From Candidatus Woesearchaeota archaeon (GTDB lineage Archaea > Nanobdellota > Nanobdellia > Woesearchaeales > UBA10216), in assembly GCA_002688315.1 (NCBI GenBank), contig NZCN01000009.1, forward strand, positions 1 to 58,965: DNA of 58,965 nucleotides, written 5' to 3'. Below the pieces are notes generated by a model. The model was not told the DNA's origin. It made no database searches and was given only the letters and a program-made list of their open reading frames with translations. The position numbers were made by a program, and so were the translations under genes. This document shows, in pieces, positions 3,125 to 33,680 of this stretch (position 1 is its first letter; the number at the start of each line of letters is the position of its first letter).

Positions 3125-3628
3125 ATGGTTGAAAAATTTATTGATATTGTAGACGAAGAAGATAATGTAACAGGCAAAGCAACCTATGAAGAAATAATGG
3201 ATAAAGGATTGATTTTCAGAGCAGCAAATGTTTTTGTTTTTAATTCTAAAGGAGAGCTGTTTGTGCATAAAAGAAGCAGAAATCTTTCTACGTTCCCTGG
3301 CATGTACGATGTCAAAATGGGCGGTATTGTTGACTCAGGCGAATCTTATGATGAAGCTGCAGTCAGAGAGCTAAAAGAAGAAAGCAGAATTGAAAATATT
3401 GAGCTGGAATTTTTGTTTACATTCAAGTTCAGAAGCAGCAAGTACAAAAACAACAGGAAAGTTTACAAATGCGTTTATGACGGAGATATAACGCTTCAGG
3501 AAGAAGAAATCGAAGAAGGAAGGTTCATGACAATAGAAGAAACAAAGAAACTAATTGAAGAAGGAAAAGTATCTGAATCTGCTGTTGAAGTTTTTAAAGA
3601 ATACCTGAGAAAACGAAAAACGTTATAA
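3125..3628 (+). CDS. NUDIX hydrolase (YfcD/IDI-like)
   Basis: GGIVDSGESYDEAAVRELKEE Nudix box; start taken at ATG 3125. Confidence 0.88.
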   Translation: MVEKFIDIVDEEDNVTGKATYEEIMDKGLIFRAANVFVFNSKGELFVHKRSRNLSTFPGMYDVKMGGIVDSGESYDEAAVRELKEESRIENIELEFLFTFKFRSSKYKNNRKVYKCVYDGDITLQEEEIEEGRFMTIEETKKLIEEGKVSESAVEVFKEYLRKRKTL

Positions 3629-3655
3629 ATAATCAGCAAAACCACCTTCTATAGC

Positions 3656-4570
3656 GTGGTTAATGTTGAAACAGAATTGTGTGGAATAAAGCTGAGGAAT
3701 CCTACTATACTAGCTTCTGGAATTGTCGGAGTTTCAGGCGCAGCCTGTATGTATGCTGCAAAGAATGGAGCAGGAGCAATTGTTCCTAAATCTATTGGGC
3801 CTGTTGAAAGAGAAGGCCATAATAACCCTGTTCTGACTGAATTTGAAGGTGGTTTCTTAAACGCTGTTGGCTTGCCAAATTCAGGCGTTGACAGCAGCTT
3901 AGAAGAAATTGAATCTGCAATGAAAAACAGCGGAGTTCCTGTGTTTCCAAGTATTTTTGGAGGAACAAAAGAAGAATATGGAGAAGTTGCCAAGAAAATT
4001 TCTGTTCTTAACCCGCAGATGATAGAAGTTAACCTTTCATGCCCCAACACAGCAAATGATTTTGGAACTCCGTTTGCATTGGATGCAAATGAAGCTTCTG
4101 AAGTTATAAAGATAGTAAAAGAAAATACAACAGCTAAAATTTCTGCAAAACTCGGTCCTAATGTGCCTGACATAAAAGCTATTGCAAAAGCAGTTGTTGA
4201 AGCTGGAGCAGATGCTATCTCTGCAATCAACACAATGCCTGGAATGGTGATTGATGTTAAAACAGCCAAGCCTGTTCTTCACAACAAGCAAGGCGGAATC
4301 AGCGGCCATGCGCTAAAGCCAATTGCAGTTAACTGTGTTTACGAAATTTACAAAGCAGTTAATGTTCCAATAATAGGAATAGGCGGTGTTTCAACAGGCG
4401 AGGATGCTGCTGAAATGATAATGGCAGGAGCAACAGCTGTTGGAATTGGAACAGGAATTTACTACAGAGGCATTGATGTTTTCAGCAAAGTCAGTTATGA
4501 ACTGCAAAAATTGATGGATGAATTAGGCTATGATTCAATCGAGAAAATGAAAGGAGCAGCTCACAAATAA
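3656..4570 (+). CDS. pyrD: dihydroorotate dehydrogenase family 1B, catalytic subunit
   Basis: NPTILASG, NAVGLPN, EVNLSCPN, GGISG and IIGIGG motifs; GTG start. Confidence 0.95.
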   Translation: MVNVETELCGIKLRNPTILASGIVGVSGAACMYAAKNGAGAIVPKSIGPVEREGHNNPVLTEFEGGFLNAVGLPNSGVDSSLEEIESAMKNSGVPVFPSIFGGTKEEYGEVAKKISVLNPQMIEVNLSCPNTANDFGTPFALDANEASEVIKIVKENTTAKISAKLGPNVPDIKAIAKAVVEAGADAISAINTMPGMVIDVKTAKPVLHNKQGGISGHALKPIAVNCVYEIYKAVNVPIIGIGGVSTGEDAAEMIMAGATAVGIGTGIYYRGIDVFSKVSYELQKLMDELGYDSIEKMKGAAHK

Positions 4571-4571
4571 A

Positions 4572-5378
4572 ATGGAAAAACCGGTTATTGTGGAAATAGA
4601 AAAAACGATTGATGAAACAGATGGAATAAAAACAATTTTCATCAAGCATTCAATAGAAGCAAAGCCAGGACAGTTTGTAATGGTATGGATACCTGGACTG
4701 GATGAAAAACCATTTGCTATCAGCTATTTGGAAAAAGAAAAGTTTGGAATTACTGTTGCAGCAGTAGGAGAGTTTTCTGATAATTTATCTAAAATGAAAG
4801 AAGGAGATAAAGTAGGATTAAGAGGACCATATGGAACCAATTATTGCCTTGAAGGAAACAATATTGTAATGGTAGGCGGAGGATACGGAGCTGCATCACT
4901 TGTACTGCTTGCTGAACAAGCGCTTGATAAAAACATGAATATTAAGTTTATCCTTGGAGCCCGTGATAAGAATAAGCTTTTGTATATTGAACGCATTAAA
5001 AAACTGGTTGGAGAAGAAAACCTGATTATAACCACTGATGATGGAAGCATGGGAGCAAAAGGCTTTGTAACAGATGCGCTGAAAGAACTGCTAAGCAAAG
5101 AAAAAGTTGACAAAGTATTTTCATGCGGCCCTGATAAGATGATGAAATCAGTTACTGAACTTTGCACTGAAAACAATGTCAAAGGAGAGATAAGCATGGA
5201 ACGATGGATGAAATGCGGATTTGGGCTTTGCGGCCATTGTTGTGTAGACCCGATAGGAATAAGAGTCTGCAAAGAAGGTCCTGTTATTGATTTTGAGCTG
5301 GCTAATAAAATTACAGAGCTTGGAAGCTATCATCGCGTAAAAAGCAGCAGAAAAGAAAGTTTGGAGGTAAAAAAATGA
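4572..5378 (+). CDS. pyrK: dihydroorotate dehydrogenase electron-transfer subunit
   Basis: PGQFVMVW, RGPYG, GGGYG, CGP and the MKCGFGLCGHC...C 2Fe-2S motif. Confidence 0.93.
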   Translation: MEKPVIVEIEKTIDETDGIKTIFIKHSIEAKPGQFVMVWIPGLDEKPFAISYLEKEKFGITVAAVGEFSDNLSKMKEGDKVGLRGPYGTNYCLEGNNIVMVGGGYGAASLVLLAEQALDKNMNIKFILGARDKNKLLYIERIKKLVGEENLIITTDDGSMGAKGFVTDALKELLSKEKVDKVFSCGPDKMMKSVTELCTENNVKGEISMERWMKCGFGLCGHCCVDPIGIRVCKEGPVIDFELANKITELGSYHRVKSSRKESLEVKK

Positions 5379-6298
5379 ATTTTGAAGGACAACATTTACT
5401 AGCAATTGGAGACTTAACAAAAGAAGACTTACTGAAGGTAATAGAAGTTGCAGGAGAGATTGACAAAGACATGGAGAAATACAAAAGTTTGTTAAATGGA
5501 AAAATAGTTTCCACGCTTTTCTTTGAACCTTCCACAAGAACAAGAATGTCATTCCAAGCTTCAATGGAACGCATGGGCGGTTCTATTATAGGATTCTCAG
5601 ATGTGTCAACCAGTTCCTTGCAAAAAGGAGAAAGTTTGCCAGACACAATAAAAATAATCAGCGGTTACTGCGATGTTATTGTTATGAGGCATCCAGAAGC
5701 AGGAAGTGTAGCTAAAGCAGCTGAAGACTCAAGTGTTCCAGTAATTAATGCAGGAGACGGACCAAACGAGCATCCAACACAGACAATTCTTGACTTGTAC
5801 ACTATAATGAAAGAAAAAGGTACGCTTGAAGGGCTAAAAGTGGGATTTGTTGGAGATTTAAGGTTTGGAAGGACAGTTCATTCTCTTGCAATGGCTTTAA
5901 CGCATTTTAATCCAGAATTCTATTTCATATCACCACCTTCGCTTGCTATGCCTGAAAAGTATTTGCAGGAACTAATCAAAAAAGGAATAAAATACCGCCA
6001 GGAAGAAGACCTGTTGAAAGTAAGCAAAGAGCTTGATGTTCTTTACGTAACAAGAATACAAAAAGAAAGGTTTGTAAGCCCAGAAGAATATGCAAAAGTG
6101 AAAGGGATTTACAAGCTAGACAAATCACTTGCTCAGCACATTAAGGAAGACGCGAAGATACTGCATCCACTGCCAAGAGTGGATGAAATGAATCCTGAAC
6201 TTGATGAACTACCGCAGAGCATTTACTTTCAACAAGCACATAACGGCATACCAGTAAGAATGGCATTGCTTGGCTTGGTACTTGGAAAACTGAAATGA
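5375..6298 (+). CDS. pyrB: aspartate carbamoyltransferase catalytic subunit
   Basis: FFEPSTRT, HPTQ and HPLPR motifs. Confidence 0.96.
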   Translation: MNFEGQHLLAIGDLTKEDLLKVIEVAGEIDKDMEKYKSLLNGKIVSTLFFEPSTRTRMSFQASMERMGGSIIGFSDVSTSSLQKGESLPDTIKIISGYCDVIVMRHPEAGSVAKAAEDSSVPVINAGDGPNEHPTQTILDLYTIMKEKGTLEGLKVGFVGDLRFGRTVHSLAMALTHFNPEFYFISPPSLAMPEKYLQELIKKGIKYRQEEDLLKVSKELDVLYVTRIQKERFVSPEEYAKVKGIYKLDKSLAQHIKEDAKILHPLPRVDEMNPELDELPQSIYFQQAHNGIPVRMALLGLVLGKLK

Positions 6299-7590
6299 CG
6301 CTTTCTATATTAAAGGGAAAAGTACTTGTTAAGGGAAAATTGGAAAATAGGAACATTCTAATTGAAGACGGAAAAATAATTGAAGTTACTGAAGATACTG
6401 TTAGCAGTAATGATAAAATAAACGCAGAAGGCAAGATTATTCTGCCGGGGTTGATTGACTGCCATGTTCATTTAAGAGAGCCAGGACTAACTCAGAAAGA
6501 AGATTTCAAAACAGGAAGCATGGCGGCAGCAGCTGGCGGCGTAACAAGTGTTTTTGAAATGCCAAACACTAATCCAGCCACTACAACATTACAACTTCTG
6601 CAAGAAAAAAAAGAATTAGCGAAAAAGTCAATTGTTAACTACGGACTTTATATGGGCGCTACTACAGATAACATTGAAGAAATTAAAAAAGCAGAAAACA
6701 TAGCAGGTGTAAAGCTTTACATGGGCTCTTCTACAGGAAATTTGTTAGTAACTGACAAAGAAGCTATAAAAAATGTTTTTGACAGCGGCAAAACAGTTGT
6801 TGTGCATGCAGAAGATGAAGAATTAATGAATAAAAATGCAGAACACTATAAAGATGAGAAAGATCCAGTCATTCACGCAAAGATAAGAAGCAATGAAGTT
6901 GAAGCAACTGCTATAAAAAGCGCTGTTCTAATGGTTGGAAACAACAAAGTACATTTTACGCACACAAGCACCAAAGAAAGCATGGAAATAATAAAAGAAG
7001 CAAAGAAAAATAACAGCAATATCAGCTGTGATGTTACACCTCATCACTTATTCTTAACTTATGAAGAGCTTAAGACGCAAAGAAACTTTGCAAAGATGAA
7101 TCCTGCGCTTAGAAACAAAGAAGATGTTGAAGCATTGTGGAAAGCAATTGATGAGGGAATCGTGGACTGCATTGCAACAGACCATGCAGGGCATACAAAA
7201 GACGAGAAAGAAGCTGACTACTGGGAAGCTCCTTCAGGAGTTCCAGGATTAGAAACAATGCTGCCGCTTTTACTTGATGCTGTTAACAAAGGAAGAATAA
7301 CATTAGAAAAAGTAACAGAGTTAACATCAATTAACCCTGCAAAAATATTTGGAGTAAAAAATAAAGGTAAAATAGAAAAAGGCTATGATGCTGACCTTGT
7401 AATTGTTGATATGAACATGGAGAAAGAAATTAAAAACGAAGAATTGTTTACTAAATGCGGATGGAGTCCATTTAATGGATGGAAATTAAAAGGATGGCCA
7501 GTTACTACAATTGTAAATGGCAATATTGTTTTTGATGATGGGGAAATAAGTGAAGCTAATGGAAAGGAGGTTGAGTTTAAATGCCAATAA
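6295..7590 (+). CDS. pyrC: dihydroorotase
   Basis: PGLIDCHVHLREPG, EMPNTNP, KMNPALR and ATDHA motifs. Confidence 0.93.
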   Translation: MTLSILKGKVLVKGKLENRNILIEDGKIIEVTEDTVSSNDKINAEGKIILPGLIDCHVHLREPGLTQKEDFKTGSMAAAAGGVTSVFEMPNTNPATTTLQLLQEKKELAKKSIVNYGLYMGATTDNIEEIKKAENIAGVKLYMGSSTGNLLVTDKEAIKNVFDSGKTVVVHAEDEELMNKNAEHYKDEKDPVIHAKIRSNEVEATAIKSAVLMVGNNKVHFTHTSTKESMEIIKEAKKNNSNISCDVTPHHLFLTYEELKTQRNFAKMNPALRNKEDVEALWKAIDEGIVDCIATDHAGHTKDEKEADYWEAPSGVPGLETMLPLLLDAVNKGRITLEKVTELTSINPAKIFGVKNKGKIEKGYDADLVIVDMNMEKEIKNEELFTKCGWSPFNGWKLKGWPVTTIVNGNIVFDDGEISEANGKEVEFKCQ

Positions 7591-8210
7591 AAGAAGTTGC
7601 AGAAATGCTTTTGAAATCAGAAGCAATAATATTACGACCGCAGGAGCCGTTTAAGTTTGCGTCCGGCATATTAAGCCCGATATATTGCGATAATAGATTA
7701 TTGCTTTCTAAAGTTGAGGAAAGAACAGACATTATTGGGTATTACATTATGAAAATAAAAGATGAAGAGATGGAGTTTGATGTAGTTGCAGGCGTAGCAA
7801 CTGCCAGCATTCCGTGGGCTGCTTTGATTGCTGAAAAGCTTGGAAAGCCAATGATATACATCAGAAAAGCAACAAAAAATCATGGTCGCGAGAATCTTAT
7901 CGAAGGAAAATTGGAAAAAGGCCAAAAAGTTCTAGTGGTTGAGGATTTGGTAAGCACAGGAGGCAGCTCTCTGAACGCTATTGAGGCAGCAAGAAACGAA
8001 GGAGGCGTAGTTGACAAATGCTTAGCAATATTTACCTATGAAATGGAAAAAGCAAAGAAAAGCTTTGAAGAAGCACAATGCGAATTGGTAACGCTAAGCG
8101 ATTTCACCACATTGATAGAAATTGCTGCAAAAAAAGGATACATTAAAGAAGAAGAAATAAAACTATTGCAGGAATGGAACAAGAACCCTGAAGAATGGGG
8201 CAAGAGGTGA
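7581..8210 (+). CDS. pyrE: orotate phosphoribosyltransferase
   Basis: FASGILSPIYCDNR motif and VVEDLVSTGGS PRPP loop. Confidence 0.95.
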   Translation: MPIKEVAEMLLKSEAIILRPQEPFKFASGILSPIYCDNRLLLSKVEERTDIIGYYIMKIKDEEMEFDVVAGVATASIPWAALIAEKLGKPMIYIRKATKNHGRENLIEGKLEKGQKVLVVEDLVSTGGSSLNAIEAARNEGGVVDKCLAIFTYEMEKAKKSFEEAQCELVTLSDFTTLIEIAAKKGYIKEEEIKLLQEWNKNPEEWGKR

Positions 8211-8215
8211 ATTGA

Positions 8216-8824
8216 ATGAAACTAAAAATAGGTGTCATGGGCTCAGGGGTAGATAAAAAAGGAGCTTACATATCAAAAAGAGCAAGGGAGCTTGCTTATG
8301 AGCTAGGAAAAGAGATTGCAAAGCACAACTGCATACTTGTAAATGGGGCATGCCGTGGCATTCCGTATATAGCAAGTAAAGGAGCAAAAGATGCAGATGG
8401 TATGGTCATTGGAGTCAGCCCTGCACAGAACTATCACGAGCACATACACACCTACAAGTTTCCAACAGACGTGTACGATATACTTTTCTACACTGGCTTT
8501 GGCTTTAAGGGGAGGAATGTTGTCAATGTCAGCAACTGCGATGCAATAATAGTTGTTTCAGGACATGTGGGAACACTTAACGAGTTTACAATAGCATATG
8601 ACGACGGAATGATAATAGGAGTAATGCAGGGTTCGGGCGGTATTGCAGACTTTGTCGATGACATAATAAAGATAGCAAGCAAAAAAACAGGGGCGACATT
8701 GATTTACGACAAAGAGGAGCATGACCTGGTAAGAAAAATCATACACGCTGTAAGGAAAAAAGAGGTTAAAGACAAAAGAAGCATAAGAAGAGAACACGAG
8801 CACAAGTGCTATAAATGCAAATGA
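8216..8824 (+). CDS. LOG/SLOG-family (TIGR00725-like) nucleotide-binding protein
   Basis: IGVMGS, GRNVVNV..CDA and GTLNEF motifs. Confidence 0.85.
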   Translation: MKLKIGVMGSGVDKKGAYISKRARELAYELGKEIAKHNCILVNGACRGIPYIASKGAKDADGMVIGVSPAQNYHEHIHTYKFPTDVYDILFYTGFGFKGRNVVNVSNCDAIIVVSGHVGTLNEFTIAYDDGMIIGVMQGSGGIADFVDDIIKIASKKTGATLIYDKEEHDLVRKIIHAVRKKEVKDKRSIRREHEHKCYKCK

Positions 8825-9612
8825 ACTTTGTGAAAAAGCTTATAAAAAGTGCAGAAGAAAAAAACAGCATTGTTTGTTTAGGCATGGACCCTGTCCTTGA
8901 GGAAATACCTATTAATGAGCAAAGCCCTAGCAAGAAAATAGTGAAGTTCTATAGCGACATAATAGAAGCTACTCACGACAGTATTGGAGCAGTAAAGCCA
9001 AACTATGCATTCTTTGCACAGTACGGATTTCCAGGATTAAGAGCTTTGAAAAAAGTAATTAGTGTTTGTAAGAATAAGAAGTTGCCAGTGATACTGGATG
9101 CGAAAAGGGGCGACATAGGAAAAAGCAGTGCAGCATACGCTAAGGAAGTATTTGAATTCTGGAAAGCAGATGCAGTTACAATTAGCCCTTTTATGGGAAA
9201 AGACAGTGTTGAACCATTTATAAAATACTGTGGAAAAGGAAAAGGTGTGTATATTCTAACAAGAACTTCCAATCCTGGAGCAGCTGATTTGCAAGACTAT
9301 CAAAAAACTGCTGCAAAAGTAAAGGAATGGCATACTGAAGGAGTGGGAGCAGTTGTTGGAGCAACTAACGTGGCTGAACTCAAAGAAATCAATGAAATTT
9401 TTGATGGCAAAATGCCACTACTTATTCCAGGAGTGGGAGCGCAAGGCGGCTCTGCAAAGGAAATTGTTGAAGCTTTGGGAGAAAACATAAAGCTCCACAG
9501 AATCAACAGCAGCAGTGGAATAAACTACGTTTACAAGAAACAAGATACTGATGATTACGCAGGAGCAGCAGCAAAAGCTGTTAAAGAACTAAATGGAGAG
9601 ATTGGTATTTAG
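8821..9612 (+). CDS. pyrF: orotidine-5'-phosphate decarboxylase
   Basis: ILDAKRGDIG, RTSNPG and LIPGVGAQGG motifs; ATGA overlap with the upstream gene. Confidence 0.94.
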   Translation: MNFVKKLIKSAEEKNSIVCLGMDPVLEEIPINEQSPSKKIVKFYSDIIEATHDSIGAVKPNYAFFAQYGFPGLRALKKVISVCKNKKLPVILDAKRGDIGKSSAAYAKEVFEFWKADAVTISPFMGKDSVEPFIKYCGKGKGVYILTRTSNPGAADLQDYQKTAAKVKEWHTEGVGAVVGATNVAELKEINEIFDGKMPLLIPGVGAQGGSAKEIVEALGENIKLHRINSSSGINYVYKKQDTDDYAGAAAKAVKELNGEIGI

Positions 9613-10310
9613 TCTTTAGCTAAAACCAAGTAATTCACTTTATGTTTTTTCTTTAACTCTCTGTAAGCAGAAGAGATTATGAACAACGCAAATATTCCGC
9701 TAATGTTTGCTTTTGCTTGGTCGCAGATGCTTGTTAGAGCTTCAAAAGTTGTGCCTGCTCGGATAACGTCGTCAACAATCAAAACATCGTCGTTTCTTTT
9801 AAGGAGAGATTTAGGAAGGTAAAATGGCGTGCTTATTGGCTTTTCTCCTGAACTTTTCGAAGCATAATGGTCAGAAAATGTAAACTCCTGGGTTAGCTTT
9901 GCATAAATAAATTTAGCACCAATAAGATTAGCTATTGCCTGCGCTATAGGAATACCGTCAGAAGCTGCAGTAAAAACCACGTTTATTTTGCTTTCAAGGC
10001 TTTTTGTAGCTCTGAAAGCTATGACATTAAGAAGAAAAGGCTGGGAAAGAATATGAGCAGTTACAAAGTACTTGCTCTTTTTGGTTTTTGAAGCTTCAAG
10101 AATTTTTGGAAGATAATTTTTTATGAAAAAATTTATGAGAGTTTCTGCTCGGTCTGTTTTCGGAAGAACATAGCCGTTAATGTAGCGATTGAGAACTCCA
10201 GCAGGCAATGACAACTCGCGAGATAGCTTGCGAAACGTCTTCTGCTGCTTCATTGACTGCAGACAGTCAATTGCCAGAAGCTTTATTTTAGTCTCTTCCA
10301 GAGTGTTCAT
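9609..10310 (-). CDS. HTH-phosphoribosyltransferase fusion, PurR-like regulator
   Basis: N-terminal HTH (TFRKLSRELSLPAGVLNRYINGYVLP) plus PRPP loop VLIVDDVIRAGTT; divergent from purA; start taken at ATG 10310. Confidence 0.82.
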   Translation of the reverse strand: MNTLEETKIKLLAIDCLQSMKQQKTFRKLSRELSLPAGVLNRYINGYVLPKTDRAETLINFFIKNYLPKILEASKTKKSKYFVTAHILSQPFLLNVIAFRATKSLESKINVVFTAASDGIPIAQAIANLIGAKFIYAKLTQEFTFSDHYASKSSGEKPISTPFYLPKSLLKRNDDVLIVDDVIRAGTTFEALTSICDQAKANISGIFALFIISSAYRELKKKHKVNYLVLAKD

Positions 10311-10313: not shown

Positions 10314-10345
10314 TGTTACAAGAACATGCACAAAACCTATATAAA
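10314..10345. promoter_or_regulatory. candidate operator plus bidirectional TATA box between the regulator and purA
   Basis: TGTTACA-agaaca-TGCACA-AAACCTATATAAA; the same architecture occurs upstream of purF. Confidence 0.6.
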
Positions 10346-10379
10346 GCTTTGTTGATTTGAACTTCTGGAGAGTGAGAAC

Positions 10380-11759
10380 TTGAATAAAATAGTTGTGGGG
10401 GCTTATTGGGGAGACGAAGGCAAAGGCAAAATAGTTGATTTGCTAGCTGCTGATTCTGACTGGGTTGTAAGGTATAATGGCGGTGATAACGCAGGCCACA
10501 CAATTGTTGTGGGGGACAAGCAAGTAGTTCTGCATATTCTGCCATCAGGAGTTTTACAAGGGAAAAATGTTGCTATCGGTCCTGATGTTTTCTTTAATCC
10601 AGGAAGTTTTCTCAAAGACTTGAATCATGTTGTGGAAAGCGGTTTTAAGATAACAGGACGCATAGTCATTGACGAAAGAGCTCATGTGATAATGCCTTAC
10701 CACATCAAACTGGAAGGAAATGAAAAAATTGGAACTACCAAGCGAGGAATAGGGCCTGCTGCAAAAGATAAAGCAGAAAGAACAACTGACATAACTATTG
10801 CAGATATGGTTGGAGAGAATTTTTTGGAGAGAATAAAAGAAGTTGTTTCAGAGAAAAAAGAGGAGCTTATTGCTGCAAATATCCTGACCAAAACGTTTGA
10901 TGATGAGAGATACTGCGAAAGAGTTCATGAAGTTTACTCTGAATATGCTTCAAGAATAAAAGAATACGTTGGAGAAACAAGCTATCTGATATATGAAGAA
11001 ACAAAAAAAGGCAGCGTGCTGTTGGAAGGCGCACAAGGAAGTTTACTTGATGTTGTGCATGGAACAAGGCCTTTCATTACTTCCTCAAACACAATTGCAG
11101 GAGGAGCCGCTTCTAATTTAGGAATTGACTTGAGAAAATTCAAGATAATTGGAATAGTTAAAGCATATCCCACAAGAGTGGGAGAGGGGCCTTTCACAAC
11201 AGAACTTGGAAACTATGAAGACGCTAAAACCGAAGAAAAAATGAAAAAACTTAGCGTTGAAGAAAAGAGAAAAGTGATTGAAGGGGACGAGAAGCTACTT
11301 GGAAGATGGATAAGGATGGACGGAGGCGAGTACGGGGCAACTACCGGACGGCCCCGCAGAACAGGACATCCTGATTTTGTTGCTTTAAGATATTCTGCAA
11401 TGATAAACGGAATAGATGAATGGGTTATAACAAAGATTGATGTTTTAGGAGGCAAGACGTTTAAGGCTGCTGTAGCCTATAAGAAAGACACTAAGATAAC
11501 AGAGAAATTTCCTTTCAGACTTGAAGGATGGGAACCAGTTTATTCTCAAAAAGAATATTTCTGGGAAAGCATGACTGAAGAGCAATGCATTCAGGCAGTA
11601 ACTGGTGGTTATGACGTGCTGCCAGAAAAAATGAAGCAGTACATAAGAGACCTTGTAATTTATACAGGCATTCCTGTGAGAATGATTTCATTAAGCCCAA
11701 AAAGAGAAATAACAGTTGTTAAGGATGTTCTATTAAGAACCACAGAATATCTAAAATGA
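10380..11759 (+). CDS. purA: adenylosuccinate synthetase (long form)
   Basis: WGDEGKGK, GGDNAGHT, GTTKRGIGP, EGAQG and GATTGRPRR motifs; TTG start. Confidence 0.96.
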   Translation: MNKIVVGAYWGDEGKGKIVDLLAADSDWVVRYNGGDNAGHTIVVGDKQVVLHILPSGVLQGKNVAIGPDVFFNPGSFLKDLNHVVESGFKITGRIVIDERAHVIMPYHIKLEGNEKIGTTKRGIGPAAKDKAERTTDITIADMVGENFLERIKEVVSEKKEELIAANILTKTFDDERYCERVHEVYSEYASRIKEYVGETSYLIYEETKKGSVLLEGAQGSLLDVVHGTRPFITSSNTIAGGAASNLGIDLRKFKIIGIVKAYPTRVGEGPFTTELGNYEDAKTEEKMKKLSVEEKRKVIEGDEKLLGRWIRMDGGEYGATTGRPRRTGHPDFVALRYSAMINGIDEWVITKIDVLGGKTFKAAVAYKKDTKITEKFPFRLEGWEPVYSQKEYFWESMTEEQCIQAVTGGYDVLPEKMKQYIRDLVIYTGIPVRMISLSPKREITVVKDVLLRTTEYLK

Positions 11760-12361: not shown

Positions 12362-12409
12362 ATGAAACAAATTCACTTCGTTCGTAGCTTCATTTTGAGG
12401 TCAAAATGA
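12362..12409 (+). other. putative 15-codon uORF (MKQIHFVRSFILRSK*) within an alternative-hairpin element
   Basis: ATG at 12362 after AAGGA; its stop overlaps the next ATG (ATGA); CAAAATGAA / TTCATTTTG / CAAAATGAA repeats. Confidence 0.4.
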
Positions 12410-15003: not shown

Positions 15004-15013
15004 AAAAAATTAA

Positions 15014-15734: not shown

Positions 15735-15772
15735 AGAAAAAAACCGATTAGTTCTATACGCATTTCCAGTTC

Positions 15773-26272: not shown

Positions 26273-26976
26273 AAGCATTGATTTTGAGGAGCGCTGGAAT
26301 AAACTGCAATGATGAAACTGAAAAAGGATTTAGAATGGCAGGAGCAGAAACCGAGCAAATTCATGTAAACAAATTAATTTCAGGAGAGAAAAAGCTAACT
26401 GATTATGATATACTTGCACTGCCTGGCGGCTTTAGCTATGGCGACTACATAGCTGGCGGTTCAATCCTTGCAAATCAGCTTTCTGTCAAGCTTAGAAAGC
26501 AAATGGAAGAGTTTATTGAGCAAGGAAAAGTTGTTGTGGGCATATGCAACGGCTTTCAAGTGCTTGTGAAAACAGGATTTTTGCCTGGTGATGGAATGAA
26601 AGCCACGCTTACAAACAATGATTCAGGGAAGTTTGAATGCAGATGGGTAAAATTAAAAGGCAGTAGCGAAATGGATGTTCCTGTTGCGCATGGAGAAGGC
26701 AAATTCTTTGCTGATAATGAAACTCTTGATGAGCTAGAGGAAAATGGGCAAGTAATGTTCAGATATTCATCTTCAGAATATCCTGAAAATCCAAACGGCT
26801 CATTAAGAGATATTGCAGGGATAACCAACACTAGGGGCAACGTAATCGGGCTTATGCCTCACCCTGAAAGACATCTTACATACGATAATCATCCGAAAGA
26901 AATAAGCAAAGAAAGCAATGAAGGAGAAGGACTGAAGTTCTTCAAGAATATAATTGAAAGGTGCAAAACAAAATGA
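26266..26976 (+). CDS. purQ: FGAM synthase glutaminase subunit
   Basis: PGGFSYGD, GICNGFQ, AHGEG and MPHPER motifs. Confidence 0.95.
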   Translation: MVKALILRSAGINCNDETEKGFRMAGAETEQIHVNKLISGEKKLTDYDILALPGGFSYGDYIAGGSILANQLSVKLRKQMEEFIEQGKVVVGICNGFQVLVKTGFLPGDGMKATLTNNDSGKFECRWVKLKGSSEMDVPVAHGEGKFFADNETLDELEENGQVMFRYSSSEYPENPNGSLRDIAGITNTRGNVIGLMPHPERHLTYDNHPKEISKESNEGEGLKFFKNIIERCKTK

Positions 26977-27704
26977 CTGTACTTGTAATGTTTGGAAGCA
27001 AAAGCGATGAGGAAACTTACAGCAAGATAGTTGAAGAGCTGAAAAAAGAAGCAATAGAATATGAGCTAAGAATTGCTTCTGCGCATAAAACACCTGAGCT
27101 TGTAGAGGAAATAATAAAAGGAGATTATGATTTGATAATTTCAGGAGCAGGGCTTGCTGCTCACCTTCCAGGAGTCATAGCTGCAAAAAAAATGGTTCCT
27201 GTACTTGGAGTTCCATGCAAAGGAGCTTATGATGGCCTTGACGCTTTTCTTTCAATAGTGCAAATGCCGCCTGGAATACCTGTTCTTTGTGTTAATGAAG
27301 ATAGCACTGCTAAAGAAGCTAAGAAAATTCTGGAGAAATCAGACAAAGTTGCTGTTGTTGGAGAAGGAAAAGCAGCTGAAAAAGCAATGAAAACTCTTGA
27401 AGAGTTTGGAATAGCTTTTGAAATGGGGGATATAGCAGCAGACGCAACTAATCTTGTATTTACAGAAGTTGGAAAAGAAGTTGAGGAAAAAGAAGAGCTG
27501 ATAATTTACTGCCCTGTTGGAGAATCAAAAGCAGAAGACGCTGTTAAAGCAATGAATGCTGCAAAGCATGGGCTATGGGTAGGTGTTAACCGAGGAGAAA
27601 ATGCTGCGATTGCTGCTGCTGAAATCCTTGGAAAAAACATTGAGGATTACCGCAAAAAAATAGCAGAAAAAGTAATAAAAGCTGATGAAGAGGTAAAAAA
27701 ATGA
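26973..27704 (+). CDS. purE: AIR carboxylase/N5-CAIR mutase PurE, extended
   Basis: GSKSD, SAHKTP, AGLAAHLPG and SIVQMPPGIPV motifs, followed by a degenerate second PurE-like segment. Confidence 0.88.
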   Translation: MTVLVMFGSKSDEETYSKIVEELKKEAIEYELRIASAHKTPELVEEIIKGDYDLIISGAGLAAHLPGVIAAKKMVPVLGVPCKGAYDGLDAFLSIVQMPPGIPVLCVNEDSTAKEAKKILEKSDKVAVVGEGKAAEKAMKTLEEFGIAFEMGDIAADATNLVFTEVGKEVEEKEELIIYCPVGESKAEDAVKAMNAAKHGLWVGVNRGENAAIAAAEILGKNIEDYRKKIAEKVIKADEEVKK

Positions 27705-28672
27705 TAAGTGATGAAATAATAAAAAATAATATCAACAATACAGTAAAAGAAACTGATTTTTCTGGTTTAGGAGAGAAGTATAAAGGAAAAGTCAGAGATA
27801 ACTACACAGATAAAGAAAACGGAAAAAGAGTAATAGTAGTAACTGACCGGATAAGTGCGTTTGATGTTGTTCTCGGAACAATTCCTTTCAAAGGGCAAGT
27901 GCTTAACCAGCTTGCTGCGTTTTGGTTTAACGAAACAAAAGATGTTGCTCCAAGTCATTTCATTGAAAATCCAGATCCAAATGTTATGATTGTGAAGCTT
28001 TGCAAGACTTTTCCTGTAGAAGTCATTGTTAGAAATTACATAACAGGAAGCTTATGGAGAGAGTATGAAAAAGGAGAAGATAATTATGGCTTAGGACTTC
28101 CTTCTGGCATGAAAAAAGACCAGAAATTTGACCAGCTGATAATCACTCCAAGCACAAAAGCAGATGAAGGGCATGATTTACCAATGAAAAGAGAAGATGT
28201 TCTTAAATTAATTCCTGAAGAAAAATATGCAAAAATGGAAGAAACAGCGTTAAAGTTATTTGCAAGAGGAAGTGAAATAGCAGCAAAACGTGGGTTAATT
28301 CTGGTTGATACTAAATACGAATTTGGCGAAAGCAGTGATGGCGAAATTCTTGTGATAGATGAAATTCATACTCCAGACAGCTCAAGATACTGGATTAAAG
28401 AAAGCTATGATGAATTATTTGGGAAAAAGCAATCACAAAAAATGCTGGACAAAGAATATATTCGGCAATGGCTAATAAACGAAAAAGGCTATATGGGTAA
28501 TGGACCTGCACCACAACTTTCTGAAGAAGTAATAGTTACAGCAGCAAAAAAATATATTGAATTATATGAATTGATTACAGGAGAAAAATTTGAAGTAGTA
28601 GAAGGCAATGTGGACAGCAGAATAAGAAAAAACTTGTTAAATAAGGGCTTAAAGGTGGAAGAAAATGGATAA
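27701..28672 (+). CDS. purC: SAICAR synthetase (long form)
   Basis: GKVRD, TDRISAFD, LVDTKYEFG and DEIHTPDSSRYW motifs. Confidence 0.95.
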   Translation: MISDEIIKNNINNTVKETDFSGLGEKYKGKVRDNYTDKENGKRVIVVTDRISAFDVVLGTIPFKGQVLNQLAAFWFNETKDVAPSHFIENPDPNVMIVKLCKTFPVEVIVRNYITGSLWREYEKGEDNYGLGLPSGMKKDQKFDQLIITPSTKADEGHDLPMKREDVLKLIPEEKYAKMEETALKLFARGSEIAAKRGLILVDTKYEFGESSDGEILVIDEIHTPDSSRYWIKESYDELFGKKQSQKMLDKEYIRQWLINEKGYMGNGPAPQLSEEVIVTAAKKYIELYELITGEKFEVVEGNVDSRIRKNLLNKGLKVEENG

Positions 28673-30017
28673 ATTTGATGCAATAAGCCCATTGGATTAC
28701 AGGTATTATAGCGATAAGCTGCAGCCTTACCTTTCTGAAAACGCCGCCATAAGATATCAATTAATGGTTGAGGTTGCTCTTGTAAAAACACTTGCTGAGA
28801 AAAGAGTTTGCAATGAAAGCATTGCGAAAGAAGTTGAGGAAGCAAGCAAAAAAATAACTGCATCTGAAGTTTATGACGAGGAAAAAAGAATTAAGCACAA
28901 CATAAGAGCACTTGTTAATTGCATAAGAAGCAAAGTTAGTGAGGAAGCAAAACCGTTTGTACACTTTACAGCAACTTCTAACGACATAATATCTACTTCT
29001 GAATCTTTAAGAATAAAAGAAGCTGTTGAAAATGTTTTGTTGCCTGAGCTTCTTGAGCTTGAAAATGTTTTGATAGAAATCGCTGAACAAGAAAAAGATA
29101 CAATACAGATTGGAAGAACGCACGGCCAGCATGCAGAACCAATAACGTTTGGATTCACTATTGCAAGTTATGTTTCAAGATTGGGTGGAAGAATATTGAA
29201 AATAAAAGAAGCTGCTGCTAACCTTAAAGGAAAGTTTTCAGGAGCAGTTGGAGCTTACAATGCTTCCTCGCTTTTTATCAAAGATGCTGAAGAGTTTGAG
29301 AAATCTGTTCTGGAAAAAATAGGGCTTAAGCCAGGAAGCCATTCAACACAGCTTGTGGAAGCTGAATACGTAACTGATTTAATGCACGCAATTGTTTCTG
29401 CAATGGGAGTCATGGCTAACATTGCAGATGACATGAGGCATCTTCAGAGAAGCGAAATATCAGAAGTTTACGAACAGTTTGAATCAGAACAGGTTGGCTC
29501 CAGCACAATGCCGCACAAGCGCAACCCAATAAATTTTGAAAATGTTAAATCAATGTGGAAAGAATTTATGCCAAGAATGATGACAGTTTATTCTGACCAA
29601 ATATCTGAGCACCAGAGAGATTTGACTAATTCAGCTTCTTCAAGGTTTAACACAGAACTAATTGCAGCTGCTATGATAACTGCTTCCAGAATGAAAAAAG
29701 TCATGAGCAAAATAGGAGTTGATAAAACCAGTTTGAAAAATAATTTTGACAAAAATAAGAGCATGATAGCTGCAGAGCCTGCTTACATACTGCTGGCTGC
29801 TGCAGGACATCCTGATGCGCATGAAGCTGTAAGAAAGAAAACACTGGAAGAGCAAGATTTTATTAGCCTTTTAATGAGCGATAAAGAACTTGAACCTTAT
29901 CTAAAAAAAATGACAGAGCAACAACTAGAGATACTAAAGAACCCTGAAAAATATATTGGACTTGCTTCAGAAAAAACACAAAAAGTATGCAATGAATGGA
30001 AGGAAAAGTTAAAATGA
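28665..30017 (+). CDS. purB: adenylosuccinate lyase
   Basis: ISPLDYRY, GRTHGQHA and GSSTMPHKRNP motifs. Confidence 0.96.
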   Translation: MDKFDAISPLDYRYYSDKLQPYLSENAAIRYQLMVEVALVKTLAEKRVCNESIAKEVEEASKKITASEVYDEEKRIKHNIRALVNCIRSKVSEEAKPFVHFTATSNDIISTSESLRIKEAVENVLLPELLELENVLIEIAEQEKDTIQIGRTHGQHAEPITFGFTIASYVSRLGGRILKIKEAAANLKGKFSGAVGAYNASSLFIKDAEEFEKSVLEKIGLKPGSHSTQLVEAEYVTDLMHAIVSAMGVMANIADDMRHLQRSEISEVYEQFESEQVGSSTMPHKRNPINFENVKSMWKEFMPRMMTVYSDQISEHQRDLTNSASSRFNTELIAAAMITASRMKKVMSKIGVDKTSLKNNFDKNKSMIAAEPAYILLAAAGHPDAHEAVRKKTLEEQDFISLLMSDKELEPYLKKMTEQQLEILKNPEKYIGLASEKTQKVCNEWKEKLK

Positions 30018-31015
30018 GCTACAAAATAGCAACACTAGGCAGCCATTCAGCGCTTCAGATACTCAAAGGAGCAAAAGATGAAGGATTTGAAACAATAGCT
30101 ATCTGTGAAAAAGGAAGGGAAAAACCATACAAAAGCTTCAGAGTAGCTGACGAAATCATAACACTCAACAATTTTTCAGAGCTAACTAAAATAGAAAGCA
30201 AACTCAGAGAAAAAAATGCAATACTCATACCTCACGGAACTTATACAGGTGTAATGAGTCAGGAAGCTATTGAAAGATTAAAAGTAGCTTATTTTGGCAA
30301 CAGAAAAATCCTCAAATGGGAATATGACAGAACATTGCAGAGAGACTGGCTGAAAAAAGCAGGGTTAACGCTTCCAAAAATATTCAAAAAACCTGAAGAC
30401 ATAGACAGGCCTGTTATCATTAAATTCTTTGGAGCAAGAGGAGGGAAAGGTTTTTTCCTAGCTAAAACTACTGAAGAATTTTACAGAAAATTAAAAGCAA
30501 AAGAAGCAAAAAAATACATAATACAAGAATATGTTATAGGAGCACCAATCTACATACATTACTTCTACTCTCCAATAACTGATGAGCTTGAAATAATGAG
30601 CTTTGACAAAAGATATGAAAGCAATGTAGACAGCATAGGACGAATAGCTGCAAAAGACCAGCTTGATATGGGCCTGGACACAAGTTATAACATAACAGGC
30701 AATGTTCCAATTGTAGTAAGAGAATCTTTGCTACCAGAAATATTTGAAATGGGAGAATCAGTTGTTAAAGCAAGCAAAAAACTCGAGAAACAAGGCATGG
30801 TCGGGCCTTTCAGCCTTGAAACAGTAATAACACCAGACCTTAAGTTCTATGTCTTTGAAATATCTGCGAGAATAGTGGCAGGAACAAATTTTTTCATAAA
30901 TTCCAGCCCGTATGCAGACTTACGCTATAATGGACAGATGAGCACCGGAAGACGCATAGCTCGAGAGATAAAAATTGCAATAGAAAAAAATAAGTTGGGC
31001 GAGGTGTTAATATGA
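30014..31015 (+). CDS. purP: PurP-family ATP-grasp (AICAR formate ligase), copy 1
   Basis: IATLGSHSALQILKGAKDEGF and FEISARIVAGTN motifs. Confidence 0.92.
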   Translation: MSYKIATLGSHSALQILKGAKDEGFETIAICEKGREKPYKSFRVADEIITLNNFSELTKIESKLREKNAILIPHGTYTGVMSQEAIERLKVAYFGNRKILKWEYDRTLQRDWLKKAGLTLPKIFKKPEDIDRPVIIKFFGARGGKGFFLAKTTEEFYRKLKAKEAKKYIIQEYVIGAPIYIHYFYSPITDELEIMSFDKRYESNVDSIGRIAAKDQLDMGLDTSYNITGNVPIVVRESLLPEIFEMGESVVKASKKLEKQGMVGPFSLETVITPDLKFYVFEISARIVAGTNFFINSSPYADLRYNGQMSTGRRIAREIKIAIEKNKLGEVLI

Positions 31016-32136
31016 TAACAAAAAAAGAGCTGCAAACAATAATAAAAGAATACGGAAAAGATGTAACAATAGGAAGCCTTGGAGGGCATTCTGCTCTTGA
31101 TGTTTGCAGAGGAGCAAAAGATGAAGGCTTAAGAACAGTTGTTGTTTGCCAGAAAGGACGCGAAAAAACATATACTAATTACTATAAAAGCAGGAATGGT
31201 GTAGGAGTTGTTGATGAAGTCATTGTTGTTGATAAATTTTCTGACATTGTAAAAGAGGAAGTGCAAAAAAAATTACAACAACTTAATACTGTATTTGTGC
31301 ACAGCAGATATTTCTGGGTTTACTGCGATATTGATAAGATTGAAAACAACTTCAAAATTCCATTTTTCGGAACAAGGCAACTAGTAAAAAAAGAAGAAAG
31401 GCACGAAGAAAACAACCAATATTTTCTTTTGGATAAAGCAGGAATAAAAACACCGCAACGCTTTGAAAATCCCAAAGATATCGACAGGCTTGTGCTTGTA
31501 AAAGTAGCTGAAGCTGCCCGCGTATATGAAAGAGCATTCTTTTTTGCGGCGAGTTACGATGAATATGTTGAAAAATCAAAGCAGTTGTTAGACAAAATAA
31601 CAATCACAGAAGACGCGCTCAAAAGAAGCATAATAGAAGAGTTTGTAGTTGGAGCATTAATAAATTTTAACTTCTTTTACTCGCCGCTCACAAAAAAAGT
31701 CGAGCTATTAGGAACAGACATCAGACGGCAAACTAATATTGATGGCTTGCTCAGGTTAACTGCTCCAGAGCAGAACGAAGTATTGAAGCACAACAAAGTA
31801 AAATACATTGAAACAGGGCATATTGCAGTAACCGTTAAAGAATCTCTTCTTGAAAAAGCTTATGAAGCTGCTGAAAAATTTGTAAAAGCAACACAAAAGC
31901 ATTATCCGCCAGGAATAATAGGTCCTTTTGCTTTGCAAGGAGCTATCATAGCAGGCCCGCCAAAAGAAGAATTCGTGGTTTTTGATGTAAGCATGCGCAT
32001 CCCAGGAAGCCCAGGCACCAGATATACGCCGTACATGAATTATGTTTATGGGCAAGACGTAAGCGTGGGAAGAAGAATAGCCATGGAAATAAAAAAAGCT
32101 GTTGAAGAAGGTAAGTTGTTGGATATAGTGACGTAA
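31012..32136 (+). CDS. purP: PurP-family ATP-grasp, copy 2 (PurP-like)
   Basis: LGGHSALDVCRGAKDEG, RRQTNIDG and FDVSMRIPGSPG motifs. Confidence 0.88.
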   Translation: MITKKELQTIIKEYGKDVTIGSLGGHSALDVCRGAKDEGLRTVVVCQKGREKTYTNYYKSRNGVGVVDEVIVVDKFSDIVKEEVQKKLQQLNTVFVHSRYFWVYCDIDKIENNFKIPFFGTRQLVKKEERHEENNQYFLLDKAGIKTPQRFENPKDIDRLVLVKVAEAARVYERAFFFAASYDEYVEKSKQLLDKITITEDALKRSIIEEFVVGALINFNFFYSPLTKKVELLGTDIRRQTNIDGLLRLTAPEQNEVLKHNKVKYIETGHIAVTVKESLLEKAYEAAEKFVKATQKHYPPGIIGPFALQGAIIAGPPKEEFVVFDVSMRIPGSPGTRYTPYMNYVYGQDVSVGRRIAMEIKKAVEEGKLLDIVT

Positions 32137-32156
32137 AATTATTTTTGAGGAAAGAA

Positions 32157-33680
32157 ATGATATTAGTCGTAGACTTTGGAAGCCAGCTAGCACATCTAAT
32201 TGCCCGACGCATAAGGTCATTAGGAGTTTACACTGAGATAGTAGAGCCGACAGTAAAAGCCTCTTGGATAAAAAACCAAAAACCTCAAGGAATAATACTT
32301 TCTGGAGGCCCGCAAAGCGTTTACGAAAAAGATTCCTTAACGTTAGACAAAGAGCTTCTTGAATTAGGAATACCAATATTAGGAATCTGCTATGGGCACC
32401 AATTGTTAGCGCAGGTACTAGGAGCAAAAGTAATACCAGCAAACAAAGAATACGGTAAAGAAACTCTTACAGTAAAAAAATCAAAGCTGTTAAAAGGACT
32501 GGATAAAAAAGAACAGGTATGGGCAAGCCATGGAGATACTGTGTTAAGCGCTCCAGAAGGGTTTGAAGTTGTCGGTGCAACAGAAGAATGCAACATAGCT
32601 GCTTTTGAAAACAGTGATAAGAAAATATATGGAGTGCAGTTCCATCCGGAAGTTGCGCACACAATCAACGGCATGAAAGTATTGAAAAATTTTGTTGAAA
32701 TCACAGGGGGCGGGAAAGGTTACTCAATAAAAGGGCTTGACCGCAAACTTGTTGCAGAAATAAAATCAACAGTAAAGGACGGGGCAGTAATAATGGGAGT
32801 GAGCGGAGGAGTTGACAGCCTAGTAGCCTCTGTTCTGGTAAGAACGGCAACGCCAAACATTTACTGTGTTTTTGTTGACCACGGGCTTATAAGGAAAAAT
32901 GAAAAGCAGGAAGTAGCAGAACTCTACAGAAAGCTGCAGTTCAAGCATTTCTACTACGTTGACGCTGCAAAACTCTTTTTGCACAGGCTGAAAGGAATAA
33001 CAGACCCTGAAAAAAAGAGAAAAATAATCGGGAATACCTTTATTGAAGTTTTTGAGAGGAAAGTAAAAGAGCTAAAAAAGTATCACGACATAAAGTATTT
33101 AGGACAGGGAACAATATACCCTGACAGGATAGAATCTGCAAAAGCTTCCAAGCAGGCTTCTGTTATTAAGACGCATCACAATGTTGGAGGGCTGCCTGAA
33201 AAGATGAAGCTAAAGCTGGTTGAGCCTCTTAAAGACTTGTACAAGGATGAAGTAAGGGAACTGGGAAAAGAGCTGGGATTAAAAAAAGAATGGCTATGGA
33301 AGCACCCATTCCCAGGGCCAGGATTAGCAGTAAGAATACCAGGAATAGTAACTCCACAAAAAATAGCACTTCTAAAAGAAGCAGATGCAATCTTCATGGA
33401 AGAGCTTAAGAAAAGTGGTTATTACGATAAAACCTGGCAGGCCTTTGCTGCACTGCTGCCAGTCAAGGCAGTAGGAGTGATGGGAGACGCCAGAGCTTAC
33501 GGTTATATAATTACGTTGCGGGCTGTTACCAGTCAGGATGCAATGACAGCAGACTGGGCCAAGCTGCCACCAGAATTGCTGGAAAGAGTTTCAACAAAAA
33601 TAACAAAGAAAGTGAAAGGAGTTACGAGAGTATTGTATGACATCAGCCAGAAACCGCCGGCAACGATAGAATACGAATAA
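32157..33680 (+). CDS. guaA: GMP synthase (glutamine-hydrolysing, fused)
   Basis: DFGSQ, GICYGHQ, QFHPEV, SGGVDS, IKTHHNVGG and KPPATIEYE motifs; start taken at ATG 32157. Confidence 0.96.
   Translation: MILVVDFGSQLAHLIARRIRSLGVYTEIVEPTVKASWIKNQKPQGIILSGGPQSVYEKDSLTLDKELLELGIPILGICYGHQLLAQVLGAKVIPANKEYGKETLTVKKSKLLKGLDKKEQVWASHGDTVLSAPEGFEVVGATEECNIAAFENSDKKIYGVQFHPEVAHTINGMKVLKNFVEITGGGKGYSIKGLDRKLVAEIKSTVKDGAVIMGVSGGVDSLVASVLVRTATPNIYCVFVDHGLIRKNEKQEVAELYRKLQFKHFYYVDAAKLFLHRLKGITDPEKKRKIIGNTFIEVFERKVKELKKYHDIKYLGQGTIYPDRIESAKASKQASVIKTHHNVGGLPEKMKLKLVEPLKDLYKDEVRELGKELGLKKEWLWKHPFPGPGLAVRIPGIVTPQKIALLKEADAIFMEELKKSGYYDKTWQAFAALLPVKAVGVMGDARAYGYIITLRAVTSQDAMTADWAKLPPELLERVSTKITKKVKGVTRVLYDISQKPPATIEYE

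Follow-up and report, generated by a model that had tools for sequence, protein, structure and literature searches.

The common picture of DPANN archaea is that they rely on a host for their building blocks. The locus considered here raises the question of how a member of this group came to have most of its genes for purine and pyrimidine synthesis in a single row, and how such a row is regulated. The locus belongs to a Candidatus Woesearchaeota archaeon (assembly GCA_002688315.1, contig NZCN01000009.1). The contig, 58,965 nucleotides long, was analysed as a whole and is called the window below. It is the complete contig C9 of the 15-contig genome G000 (912,474 bp), which is rated 99.7% complete with 0.09% contamination. 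The row occupies positions 3113-33680 (30.6 kb) and contains 31 open reading frames (ORFs), 29 of them on the plus strand. An initial annotation, made from the sequence alone, had considered it a portable 'nucleotide autonomy island' with its own regulator. Our reading is that the row is a vertically inherited 'superoperon' of one Woesearchaeota family, with the pur units controlled by a putative PurR-like protein that combines a helix-turn-helix (HTH) with a phosphoribosyltransferase (PRTase) domain. The probability of this reading is estimated as about 0.7.

That the host is a DPANN archaeon, as initially annotated, is borne out by three lines of evidence, namely names of relatives, NCBI lineage, and genome size and completeness. 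Close relatives of three different host proteins bear the name Candidatus Woesearchaeota archaeon, the phylum Woesearchaeota is filed by NCBI under the kingdom Nanobdellati, and the genome is nearly complete at 912 kb. The window also contains archaeal replication genes, encoding PCNA and an Ssb-like OB protein, and an intron-bearing tRNA.

Conservation of the gene row

The gene order is the same in all 12 family genomes examined by tblastn maps (G001, G002, G006, G009, G013, G014, G015, G019, and also G003, G007, G010, G017). The named record JACPIH01 is colinear with the row as well. The order common to the family is pyrD-K-(B)-C-E-SLOG-F, the regulator, purA-H2-H1, purF-D-N-MTHFS-glyA-folD-M-SL-Q-E-C-B-P-P-guaA, where MTHFS stands for 5-formyl-tetrahydrofolate cyclo-ligase. 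The flanks are kept wherever the contigs extend, with scpB and orf195 on the left and orf226, orf130, ssb and the PCNA gene on the right. The pair of purP genes is present in 21 of the 24 other genomes of the GTDB family, and the split purH is retained throughout the family.

The differences are local. Insertions of 3-8 kb were found in G006, G015 and G019. The pyrB gene is within the row only in genus g1 (G000, G002, G003). In G002, which belongs to the same genus, pyrD (locus L023 on G002:C4, 14359-15270) is only 31% identical and there is no pyrK; as judged from these sequences, the type of dihydroorotate dehydrogenase is replaced in place.

The cluster proteins diverge about as much as the flanking PCNA, which counts against a recent island: their identity is 59-83% (PCNA, 85%) in G001 and 46-70% (PCNA, 66%) in G009. 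The composition is ordinary. The tetranucleotide distances of 5-kb windows in the cluster are at percentiles 6-95 of the 173 windows of the genome, and the GC content is 0.37-0.39 in the cluster and 0.36-0.38 in the contigs, so that a composition scan for an island places the cluster inside the range of the genome. No flanking direct repeat of at least 16 nt (att-like) was found around the row. None of the scanned window ORFs reached the Pfam cut-off for an integrase or a transposase; there are only two weak sub-threshold HTH matches at 712-1059.

Candidate operators

The spacer before purA and a region about 105 nt before purF share a stretch of 32 bp. The two candidate operators are operator 1 (10314-10368, plus strand), between the start of the regulator gene and purA, with a palindrome-like site, a TATA box and a downstream half-site, and operator 2 (15776-15830, plus strand), about 105 nt upstream of purF. 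The genome has exactly two copies of the pattern GTTRCA-N6-TGNNCAAAA, which abuts the TATA box, one before purA and one before purF. The 16-mer core ACAAAACCTATATAAA is likewise found in 912 kb at these two places only. A weight matrix was built from eight sites in relatives, with no site from G000. The two G000 sites score 27.4 and 26.6 bits, and the next best of 1.82 million positions scores 17.2.

In the family, the pattern GTTRCA-N6-TGNNCAAAA was found in 15 of 26 genomes, whereas the reversed pattern, used as a control, gave one match in 26 genomes. The HTH-PRTase gene is present in 17 of the 26. The operator was found in 14 of these 17 genomes and in one of the nine genomes lacking the gene, where the lone match is a single site within purB. 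Both the gene and the operator are absent from eight genomes. Thirteen of the 14 genomes that have both contain exactly two sites; in all 14, one site is within about 70 bp of the regulator start. Where there are two, the other is 3-7 kb off, before purF. Three relatives (G002, G006, G013) have kept the operons, and both the regulator gene (genome-wide) and the promoter site are absent. The same site is found between the regulator and the pur operon in two other families (G028, G133). In G104 no motif was seen near the regulator, which is 91 bp from a contig end that limits the view. The initial annotation's suggestion that the cluster has a regulator of its own is supported by this co-occurrence of operator and HTH-PRTase.

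Alignment of 21 sites yields a TTRCA-N6-TGCAM-like palindrome abutting the transcription factor B recognition element (BRE) and TATA box, with a TTT-RYAC half-site about 10 bp past the TATA box. The search pattern covered neither this half-site nor the TATA box, yet both are conserved in the aligned sites.

A second, proximal TATA-like element, AAAATATAAAATA, is situated about 40 nt before purF (window 15860-15915). It is common to G001 and to G002, the latter without regulator and operator (L024, about 9440-9488, and L023, about 2206-2260). This element may be a constitutive second purF promoter.

The HTH-PRTase

The candidate PurR-like regulator is encoded at 9609-10310 on the minus strand, between pyrF and purA. 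It belongs to family NF006328 (193.2 bits against a cut-off of 184); two of 14 control genomes also have a match above this cut-off. Translation probably starts from the ATG at 10310 and not from the GTG at 10331, because the NCBIfam alignment begins at the former. In the protein of 233 aa, a conserved HTH is combined with a PRT domain whose loop of the phosphoribosyl pyrophosphate (PRPP) type is intact; the PRPP-binding loop VLIVDDVIRAGTT is kept. Both the HTH stretch and the loop, DDxxRxG(x)T, are conserved in 33 homologues, with D180, D181, R184 and G186 invariant.

The best sequence match in the PDB is PurR of Bacillus subtilis (E = 9e-13, PurR residues 73-233), and xanthine phosphoribosyltransferase (XPRT) matches at E = 1.5e-5. 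The AlphaFold model (pLDDT 88.6, pTM 0.85) has PurR structures as all of its nine top Foldseek matches, with TM 0.53-0.60. A homodimer is predicted with a score of 0.84, against 0.00 for the best of three controls, contact agreement of at least 96% and partner pLDDT of at least 86. The prediction was made with a custom alignment. Among proteins solved as pairs, 20 of 30 attain this mark, and among those solved as single chains, 1 of 23; the pass may reflect likeness, because a similar dimer (PurR) has already been solved. The GfcR-type family NF002620, which does match pyrE, is not among the ten families matching the HTH-PRTase at E 1e-5. By sequence and model, the HTH-PRTase is PurR-like in its predicted working, yet a member of another family. 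The open-access literature, with supplements outside the search, yielded no description of a dedicated archaeal purine regulator.

The proposed mechanism is as follows. The divergently encoded HTH-PRTase would bind the operators as a dimer. It would regulate its own gene and, most likely, repress the pur operons. Repression would be lifted when a ligand occupies the PRPP-type pocket; the analogy with B. subtilis PurR suggests PRPP. Gene content, synteny, uniqueness of the motif, its co-occurrence with the gene and the likeness to PurR are observed, whereas binding to DNA, the direction of control and the identity of the ligand are inferred. Repression is favoured because the downstream half-site is near the start site, because the palindrome stands between the TATA box and the ATG of the regulator, and because relatives have lost the regulator and the site with the operons retained.

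A wider proposal is that family NF006328, whose members are at present annotated as adenine phosphoribosyltransferase or as hypothetical protein, is the missing dedicated purine transcription factor of archaea, a PRPP-type sensor binding a TTGCA-N6-TGCAA-like palindrome that flanks BRE/TATA, shared by DPANN and Asgard archaea and gained or lost together with its operators. We advance it tentatively, at a little less than even odds.

Objections and alternative explanations

Several observations weigh against the superoperon reading or its regulatory part. Firstly, three genomes (G004, G020, G023) have the regulator and no motif; they are 82-84% complete, and in two of them the gene is at a contig end. 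Because the family genomes are related, they amount to fewer independent cases than the co-occurrence counts suggest. Secondly, a palindrome just upstream of the BRE would likewise fit an activator, and GfcR, the sole characterised archaeal HTH-PRT regulator, is an activator (PMC10838023; here and below, statements from the literature refer to the parts of the cited papers that were used). Thirdly, NCBI names the model NF006328, matched at 192.7 bits in the genome search and 193.2 bits in the window, adenine phosphoribosyltransferase. The PurR equivalog TIGR01743 scores 61 bits against a cut-off of 258.7; no PuR_N domain was detected, and the Pfam match is to Pribosyltran only. Fourthly, this reading does not account for the presence of pyrB without a source of carbamoyl phosphate, or of guaA without guaB. 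Finally, distribution in the order is patchy, as 41 of 121 genomes have purM and 3 of 120 have the regulator, which bears on the origin before the family ancestor.

The alternative that survives best concerns only this deeper origin, and it is compatible with the superoperon reading. An ancestor shared with a few other Woesearchaeales families could have assembled or acquired the row, or blocks of it, long ago and partly from bacteria, with vertical descent from then on. We regard this as possible and lean moderately away from it. The order was sampled by one genome from each of 120 other families, plus G000 (121 genomes). In this sample purM occurs in about one third of the families, and pyrF of this subtype in 32 of the 121 genomes. 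Families f1, f5 and f100 alone have both genes on the same contig at a distance of no more than 25 kb, a count that is limited by fragmented assemblies. The three regulator genes are all outside G000. The purM matches fall into two score classes, about 345-399 and about 190-235 bits, which suggests two purM lineages within Woesearchaeales and speaks for an ancient acquisition. So do the long form of PurA, common in bacteria (385 bits with NF002223 against 193 bits with the short-form NF003295), the single-chain GuaA, also common in bacteria, and the PyrD score below the cut-off of the archaeal model. The nearest PurA clusters in a protein atlas are mostly bacterial, although by the atlas's own caution neighbours from another domain are no sign of gene transfer. 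In another Woesearchaeota subgroup, gains of purE and pyrE, possibly bacterial, have been inferred (Huang et al., PMC8421398).

On the other hand, the nearest named outgroups of PurA are a mixture of archaea (Aenigmarchaeota, Thermoprotei, Bilamarchaeum) and bacteria (Thermodesulfovibrio, Omnitrophica, a deltaproteobacterium), all at 40-43% identity, and identities outside the Woesearchaeota clade do not exceed 45%. In a quick tree of 43 rows the Woesearchaeota PurA sequences form a clade with support 100, which does not fall inside the clade containing the three named bacteria. PurA was the one gene examined for mosaic origin. For it, the bacterial ancestry proposed in the initial annotation as part of a mosaic cluster finds no support in the outgroup identities or in the quick tree. 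The split PurH and the paired PurP are ordinary archaeal variations (PMC3261824). The purM score classes together with the 'bacterial-form' PurA, GuaA and PyrD may nevertheless reflect an ancient mixed origin. Near-complete purine and pyrimidine pathways in some Woesearchaeota have already been published (PMC8421398; PMC6349945).

The second alternative is that the HTH-PRTase binds the operator as an activator, recruiting TFB/TBP in the manner of GfcR (PMC10838023). The palindrome is directly upstream of BRE/TATA at both promoters, and the proximal TATA-like element of purF is kept in G002, which has no regulator; both fit activation. What makes it unlikely is the rest of the promoter architecture. 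A third conserved half-site lies about 10 bp past the TATA box, near the expected start site, and on the regulator's side the palindrome sits between the TATA box and the ATG. Moreover, the lineages without the regulator have lost the site and kept the operons, which is more readily explained by the loss of a repressor.

Still less probable is that the HTH-PRTase is a working purine phosphoribosyltransferase, and that the motif is a shared promoter element or a site of another factor. The match above the cut-off of an adenine phosphoribosyltransferase (APRT) model and the intact PRPP loop are what an enzyme would have, and APRT and XPRT structures match the model as well. However, the N-terminal HTH is conserved as strongly as the PRT core, no enzyme ranks as high as PurR in the sequence search or in the fold search, the motif and the gene are jointly present or absent in 22 of the 26 family genomes, and the motif adjoins the start of the gene in three families.

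A recently acquired, portable island moving among DPANN genomes, for which the patchiness of the genes in the order could be cited (purP in 6 of 16 other families, purM in 41 and pyrF in 32 of 121 genomes, pyr and pur genes linked on one contig, at 25 kb or less, in f1, f5 and f100 alone), is very improbable and already contradicted at the family level by the identical order and flanks in 12 of 12 genomes, the ordinary composition, the lack of flanking direct repeats and of an integrase or transposase above the Pfam cut-off, and the divergence that follows PCNA; the island of the initial annotation is thus not borne out.

Genes and transcription units of the row

All genes named in the initial annotation were confirmed, in the order given there, by NCBIfam and Pfam. 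Its remark that most junctions overlap or nearly abut holds for the ORF coordinates of two stretches. Between purF and guaA, neighbouring genes overlap or are no more than 8 nt apart at all 14 junctions; from the NUDIX gene to pyrF, each of the seven junctions is an overlap or a gap of at most 27 nt. Such tight overlaps would point to translational coupling. The sole real gap in the row is 15003-15915. The initial list did not include the NUDIX, SLOG/LOG-like, MazG-like, membrane-protein, small ferredoxin and minus-strand DUF4389 genes. Two fusions were also missing from it, purN with the gene for 5-formyl-tetrahydrofolate cyclo-ligase (MTHFS), and purS with purL. The row would be transcribed as three co-oriented units. 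Unless stated otherwise, the genes below are on the plus strand.

The first unit would be nudix-pyrDKBCE-SLOG-pyrF. At its head is the gene of a NUDIX hydrolase (3113-3628; PF00293, E = 6e-17), which also adjoins pyrD in G009 and G002. It is followed by pyrD of type 1B (3656-4570; NF005574, 336 bits) and pyrK encoding the electron-transfer subunit (4572-5378; NF000796, 300 bits), both above the cut-offs. Then come pyrB, encoding aspartate carbamoyltransferase (5375-6298; TIGR00670, 381 bits), pyrC (6295-7590; TIGR00857, 416 bits) and pyrE (7581-8210; TIGR00336, 145 bits). A SLOG/LOG-like gene of the TIGR00725 family (8216-8824; PF18306, E = 8.5e-41) separates pyrE from pyrF (8815-9612; TIGR02127, 219 bits), and this position is unchanged in every family locus that covers the spot. 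Its product is a candidate nucleotide N-ribohydrolase in a pyrimidine operon, as far as family membership can tell.

The second unit would begin with purA (10380-11759; PF00709, 399 bits), purH2, encoding the half of PurH that is the cyclohydrolase of inosine monophosphate (IMP) (11756-12349; PF02142), and purH1, encoding the half that is the formyltransferase of aminoimidazole carboxamide ribonucleotide (AICAR) (12406-13635; PF01808), and would include the ORFs behind them. These are a 343-aa membrane protein (13677-14708) with no NCBIfam or Pfam family match, for which matches are confined to genus g1, and a small 4Fe-4S ferredoxin (14734-15003; Fer4_15, E = 1.2e-11). The DUF4389 ORF (15014-15283), identified in the family scan, is on the minus strand.

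The third unit would consist of 15 genes, purF-mazG-purD-purN/MTHFS-glyA-folD-purM-purSL-purQ-purE-purC-purB-purP-purP-guaA. The purF gene (15915-17360; TIGR01134, 442 bits) and purD (17739-19040; TIGR00877, 447 bits) are separated by a gene encoding a MazG-like pyrophosphatase (17362-17742; PF12643, E = 2e-11). The fused purN-MTHFS gene (19030-20286) has PF00551 and PF01812 in a single ORF of 418 aa; in other genera its two halves match as separate pieces. Next are glyA (20283-21614; NF000586, 565 bits) and folD (21611-22456; NF010786, 393 bits). The following genes were assigned by NCBIfam/Pfam: purM (22453-23481), the purS-purL fusion (23417-26272), purQ (26248-26976), purE with an insertion of about 80 aa (26961-27704), purC (27701-28672) and purB (28665-30017). 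Both purP genes match PF06849 and PF06973. The first (29996-31015) is of the cluster-I type, with the RGGKG loop, and the second (31012-32136) is of the cluster-II type, without it; cluster I is defined by a (K/R)GG(K/R)G loop and cluster II by a longer loop lacking it (PMC3261824). The last gene is guaA for single-chain guanosine monophosphate (GMP) synthase (32145-33680; NF000848, 711 bits).

Two of these proteins have unusual extensions. In PurS-PurL about 90 residues precede the PurS match (23417-23700); the ORF as listed shares 65 nt with purM, and this shared region is conserved in relatives. PurE is 247 aa long and the PurE model covers residues 7-125 only, followed by about 80 extra residues and then a C-terminal helix-like stretch. 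It has an AAHLPG stretch, which we take to be a class-I signature.

Pathway completeness

The row encodes five of the six steps to pyrimidines; on the way to IMP and adenosine monophosphate (AMP), only PurK is missing from it. On the purine route to IMP, purF, D, N, SL, Q, M, E, C, B, H1, H2 and P were found, mostly above curated cut-offs. The genes prs, pyrG, a ribonucleotide reductase gene and a two-domain thyX are elsewhere in the genome. The ThyX ORF (G000:C12:113492-114772) has two matches in one frame of 563 aa, that is, the two-domain long form.

The glycine and one-carbon genes fit this route. GlyA makes glycine and methylene-tetrahydrofolate (methylene-THF) from serine, FolD leads to 10-formyl-THF, and MTHFS recycles 5-formyl-THF. 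These three proteins would form a serine-driven one-carbon module of the pur operon. From the known reactions, the presence of glyA, folD and MTHFS inside the operon makes sense, because they would supply glycine and 10-formyl-THF for PurD, PurN and PurH1. PurP provides a formate-dependent bypass of PurH1.

Several genes were not found. In the 99.7%-complete genome there is no match for carB (carA was not searched separately), for the carbamate kinase gene arcC, or for a second gene of the OTCase family or ornithine carbamoyltransferase; pyrB is the only OTCace-family gene of the genome. The AA-kinase gene at 44729-45505 was considered as a carbamate kinase and rejected, as it is an isopentenyl phosphate kinase (233 bits). 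No guaB was found: TIGR01302 matches only a CBS region in G000, at 44 bits or less, and there is no match of IMP dehydrogenase length to this model in the cluster-bearing G002, G013 and G028. Neither purK nor purT was found in the genome. The absence of PurK has been treated as tolerable (PMC3261824). The gene for dihydropteroate synthase, folP, the only fol gene searched, is missing as well, as PF00809 was found in none of the five genomes searched, against 13 of 14 control genomes.

Thus the terms 'near-complete' and 'autonomy' of the initial annotation are overstated, with carB, arcC, guaB, purK, purT and folP not found. Judging by its gene content, the organism could plausibly make IMP and AMP, and uridine monophosphate from carbamoyl aspartate onward. 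Import or another supply would be needed for folate, for carbamoyl phosphate, and for xanthine or guanine or some other route to xanthosine monophosphate (XMP) or GMP, because no carbamoyl-phosphate synthase, carbamate kinase, IMP dehydrogenase or dihydropteroate synthase was found.

Three further observations concern these steps. The pur operon ends with guaA although IMP dehydrogenase was found neither in G000 nor in three cluster-bearing relatives. The pyrB gene has been kept, and has moved into the row in genus g1, although carbamoyl-phosphate synthase, carbamate kinase and ornithine carbamoyltransferase were not found. In the relative G013 (C1:530272-533457), carB immediately precedes pyrD as the first gene of the same row; the match crosses one in-frame TGA.

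Comparison with known systems

PurR of B. subtilis and Lactococcus lactis (TIGR01743; PDB 1O57, 1P4A, 7RMW) has the same plan as the HTH-PRTase: an N-terminal DNA-binding helical domain and a PRT sensor with a PRPP loop, a gene beside purine operons, presumed control via a repeated promoter operator, and a dimer, here predicted. The two differ in length (285 aa in PurR, 233 aa here) and in family, the HTH-PRTase scoring 61 bits against the cut-off of 258.7 with no PuR_N winged helix detected. The promoters here are archaeal, with BRE and TATA box. The operator is unrelated in sequence to the bacterial PurBox.

The pur (purEKBCSQLFMNHD) and pyr operons of B. subtilis are long and co-directional, with overlapping genes and a dedicated PRT-domain regulator, and the same traits are seen here. 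Unlike in B. subtilis, pyr, pur, purA, guaA, glyA-folD-MTHFS and two purP genes are all in one 30.6-kb row; no purK, carB or guaB was found in the genome; the two halves of PurH have separate genes; and PurN is fused to MTHFS and PurS to PurL.

GfcR of Haloferax volcanii is likewise an archaeal one-component regulator with an HTH and a PRT fold, and binds promoters directly (PMC10838023). It differs in being a member of a PyrE-like family and an activator of sugar catabolism, with a pocket said to be unfit for PRPP (PMC10838023). The HTH-PRTase, on the other hand, is assigned to NF006328, is located in a purine cluster, and has no match to NF002620 at E 1e-5.

Among the archaeal variations of the purine pathway surveyed by Brown et al. 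in 2011 (PMC3261824) are isolated PurH1 and PurH2, paired cluster-I and cluster-II purP, and a class-I-like PurE without PurK, all as observed here. That survey predates DPANN genomes, and in the part used here it has small clusters and neither a joint pyr-pur-folate row nor a regulator. Huang et al. in 2021 (PMC8421398) described near-complete purine and pyrimidine pathways in subgroups D and J of the Woesearchaeota, which share with this family the phylum and, in some members, nucleotide synthesis; the portion of that paper used here does not mention gene order, an operator or a regulator.

Other features of the window

In a scan with Rfam at the gathering threshold, two tRNAs were the sole matches in the window, and no riboswitch or leader family was detected. 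One of them is a 131-nt tRNA at 35108-35238 (43 bits), missed by ARAGORN, which is presumably an intron-containing archaeal tRNA gene. A pair of genes of the archaeal mevalonate pathway (isopentenyl phosphate kinase and type-1 isopentenyl diphosphate isomerase) is found at 44729-46811, on either side of an unknown ORF of 255 aa. A cluster of MoxR AAA ATPase, DUF58 and BatA/VWA genes is on the minus strand at 49078-56412. An ORF with a LAGLIDADG domain (57680-58936) reaches the contig end.

Implications

The family shows which steps of nucleotide synthesis a genome of 0.9 Mb keeps and which it has dropped, the latter being the source of carbamoyl phosphate, IMP dehydrogenase and folate synthesis. 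The dropped steps therefore give concrete predictions of what must be imported. The putative regulator and its operator form a testable candidate for archaeal control of purine synthesis, with a defined set of components: a protein, a 21-bp site and a candidate ligand.

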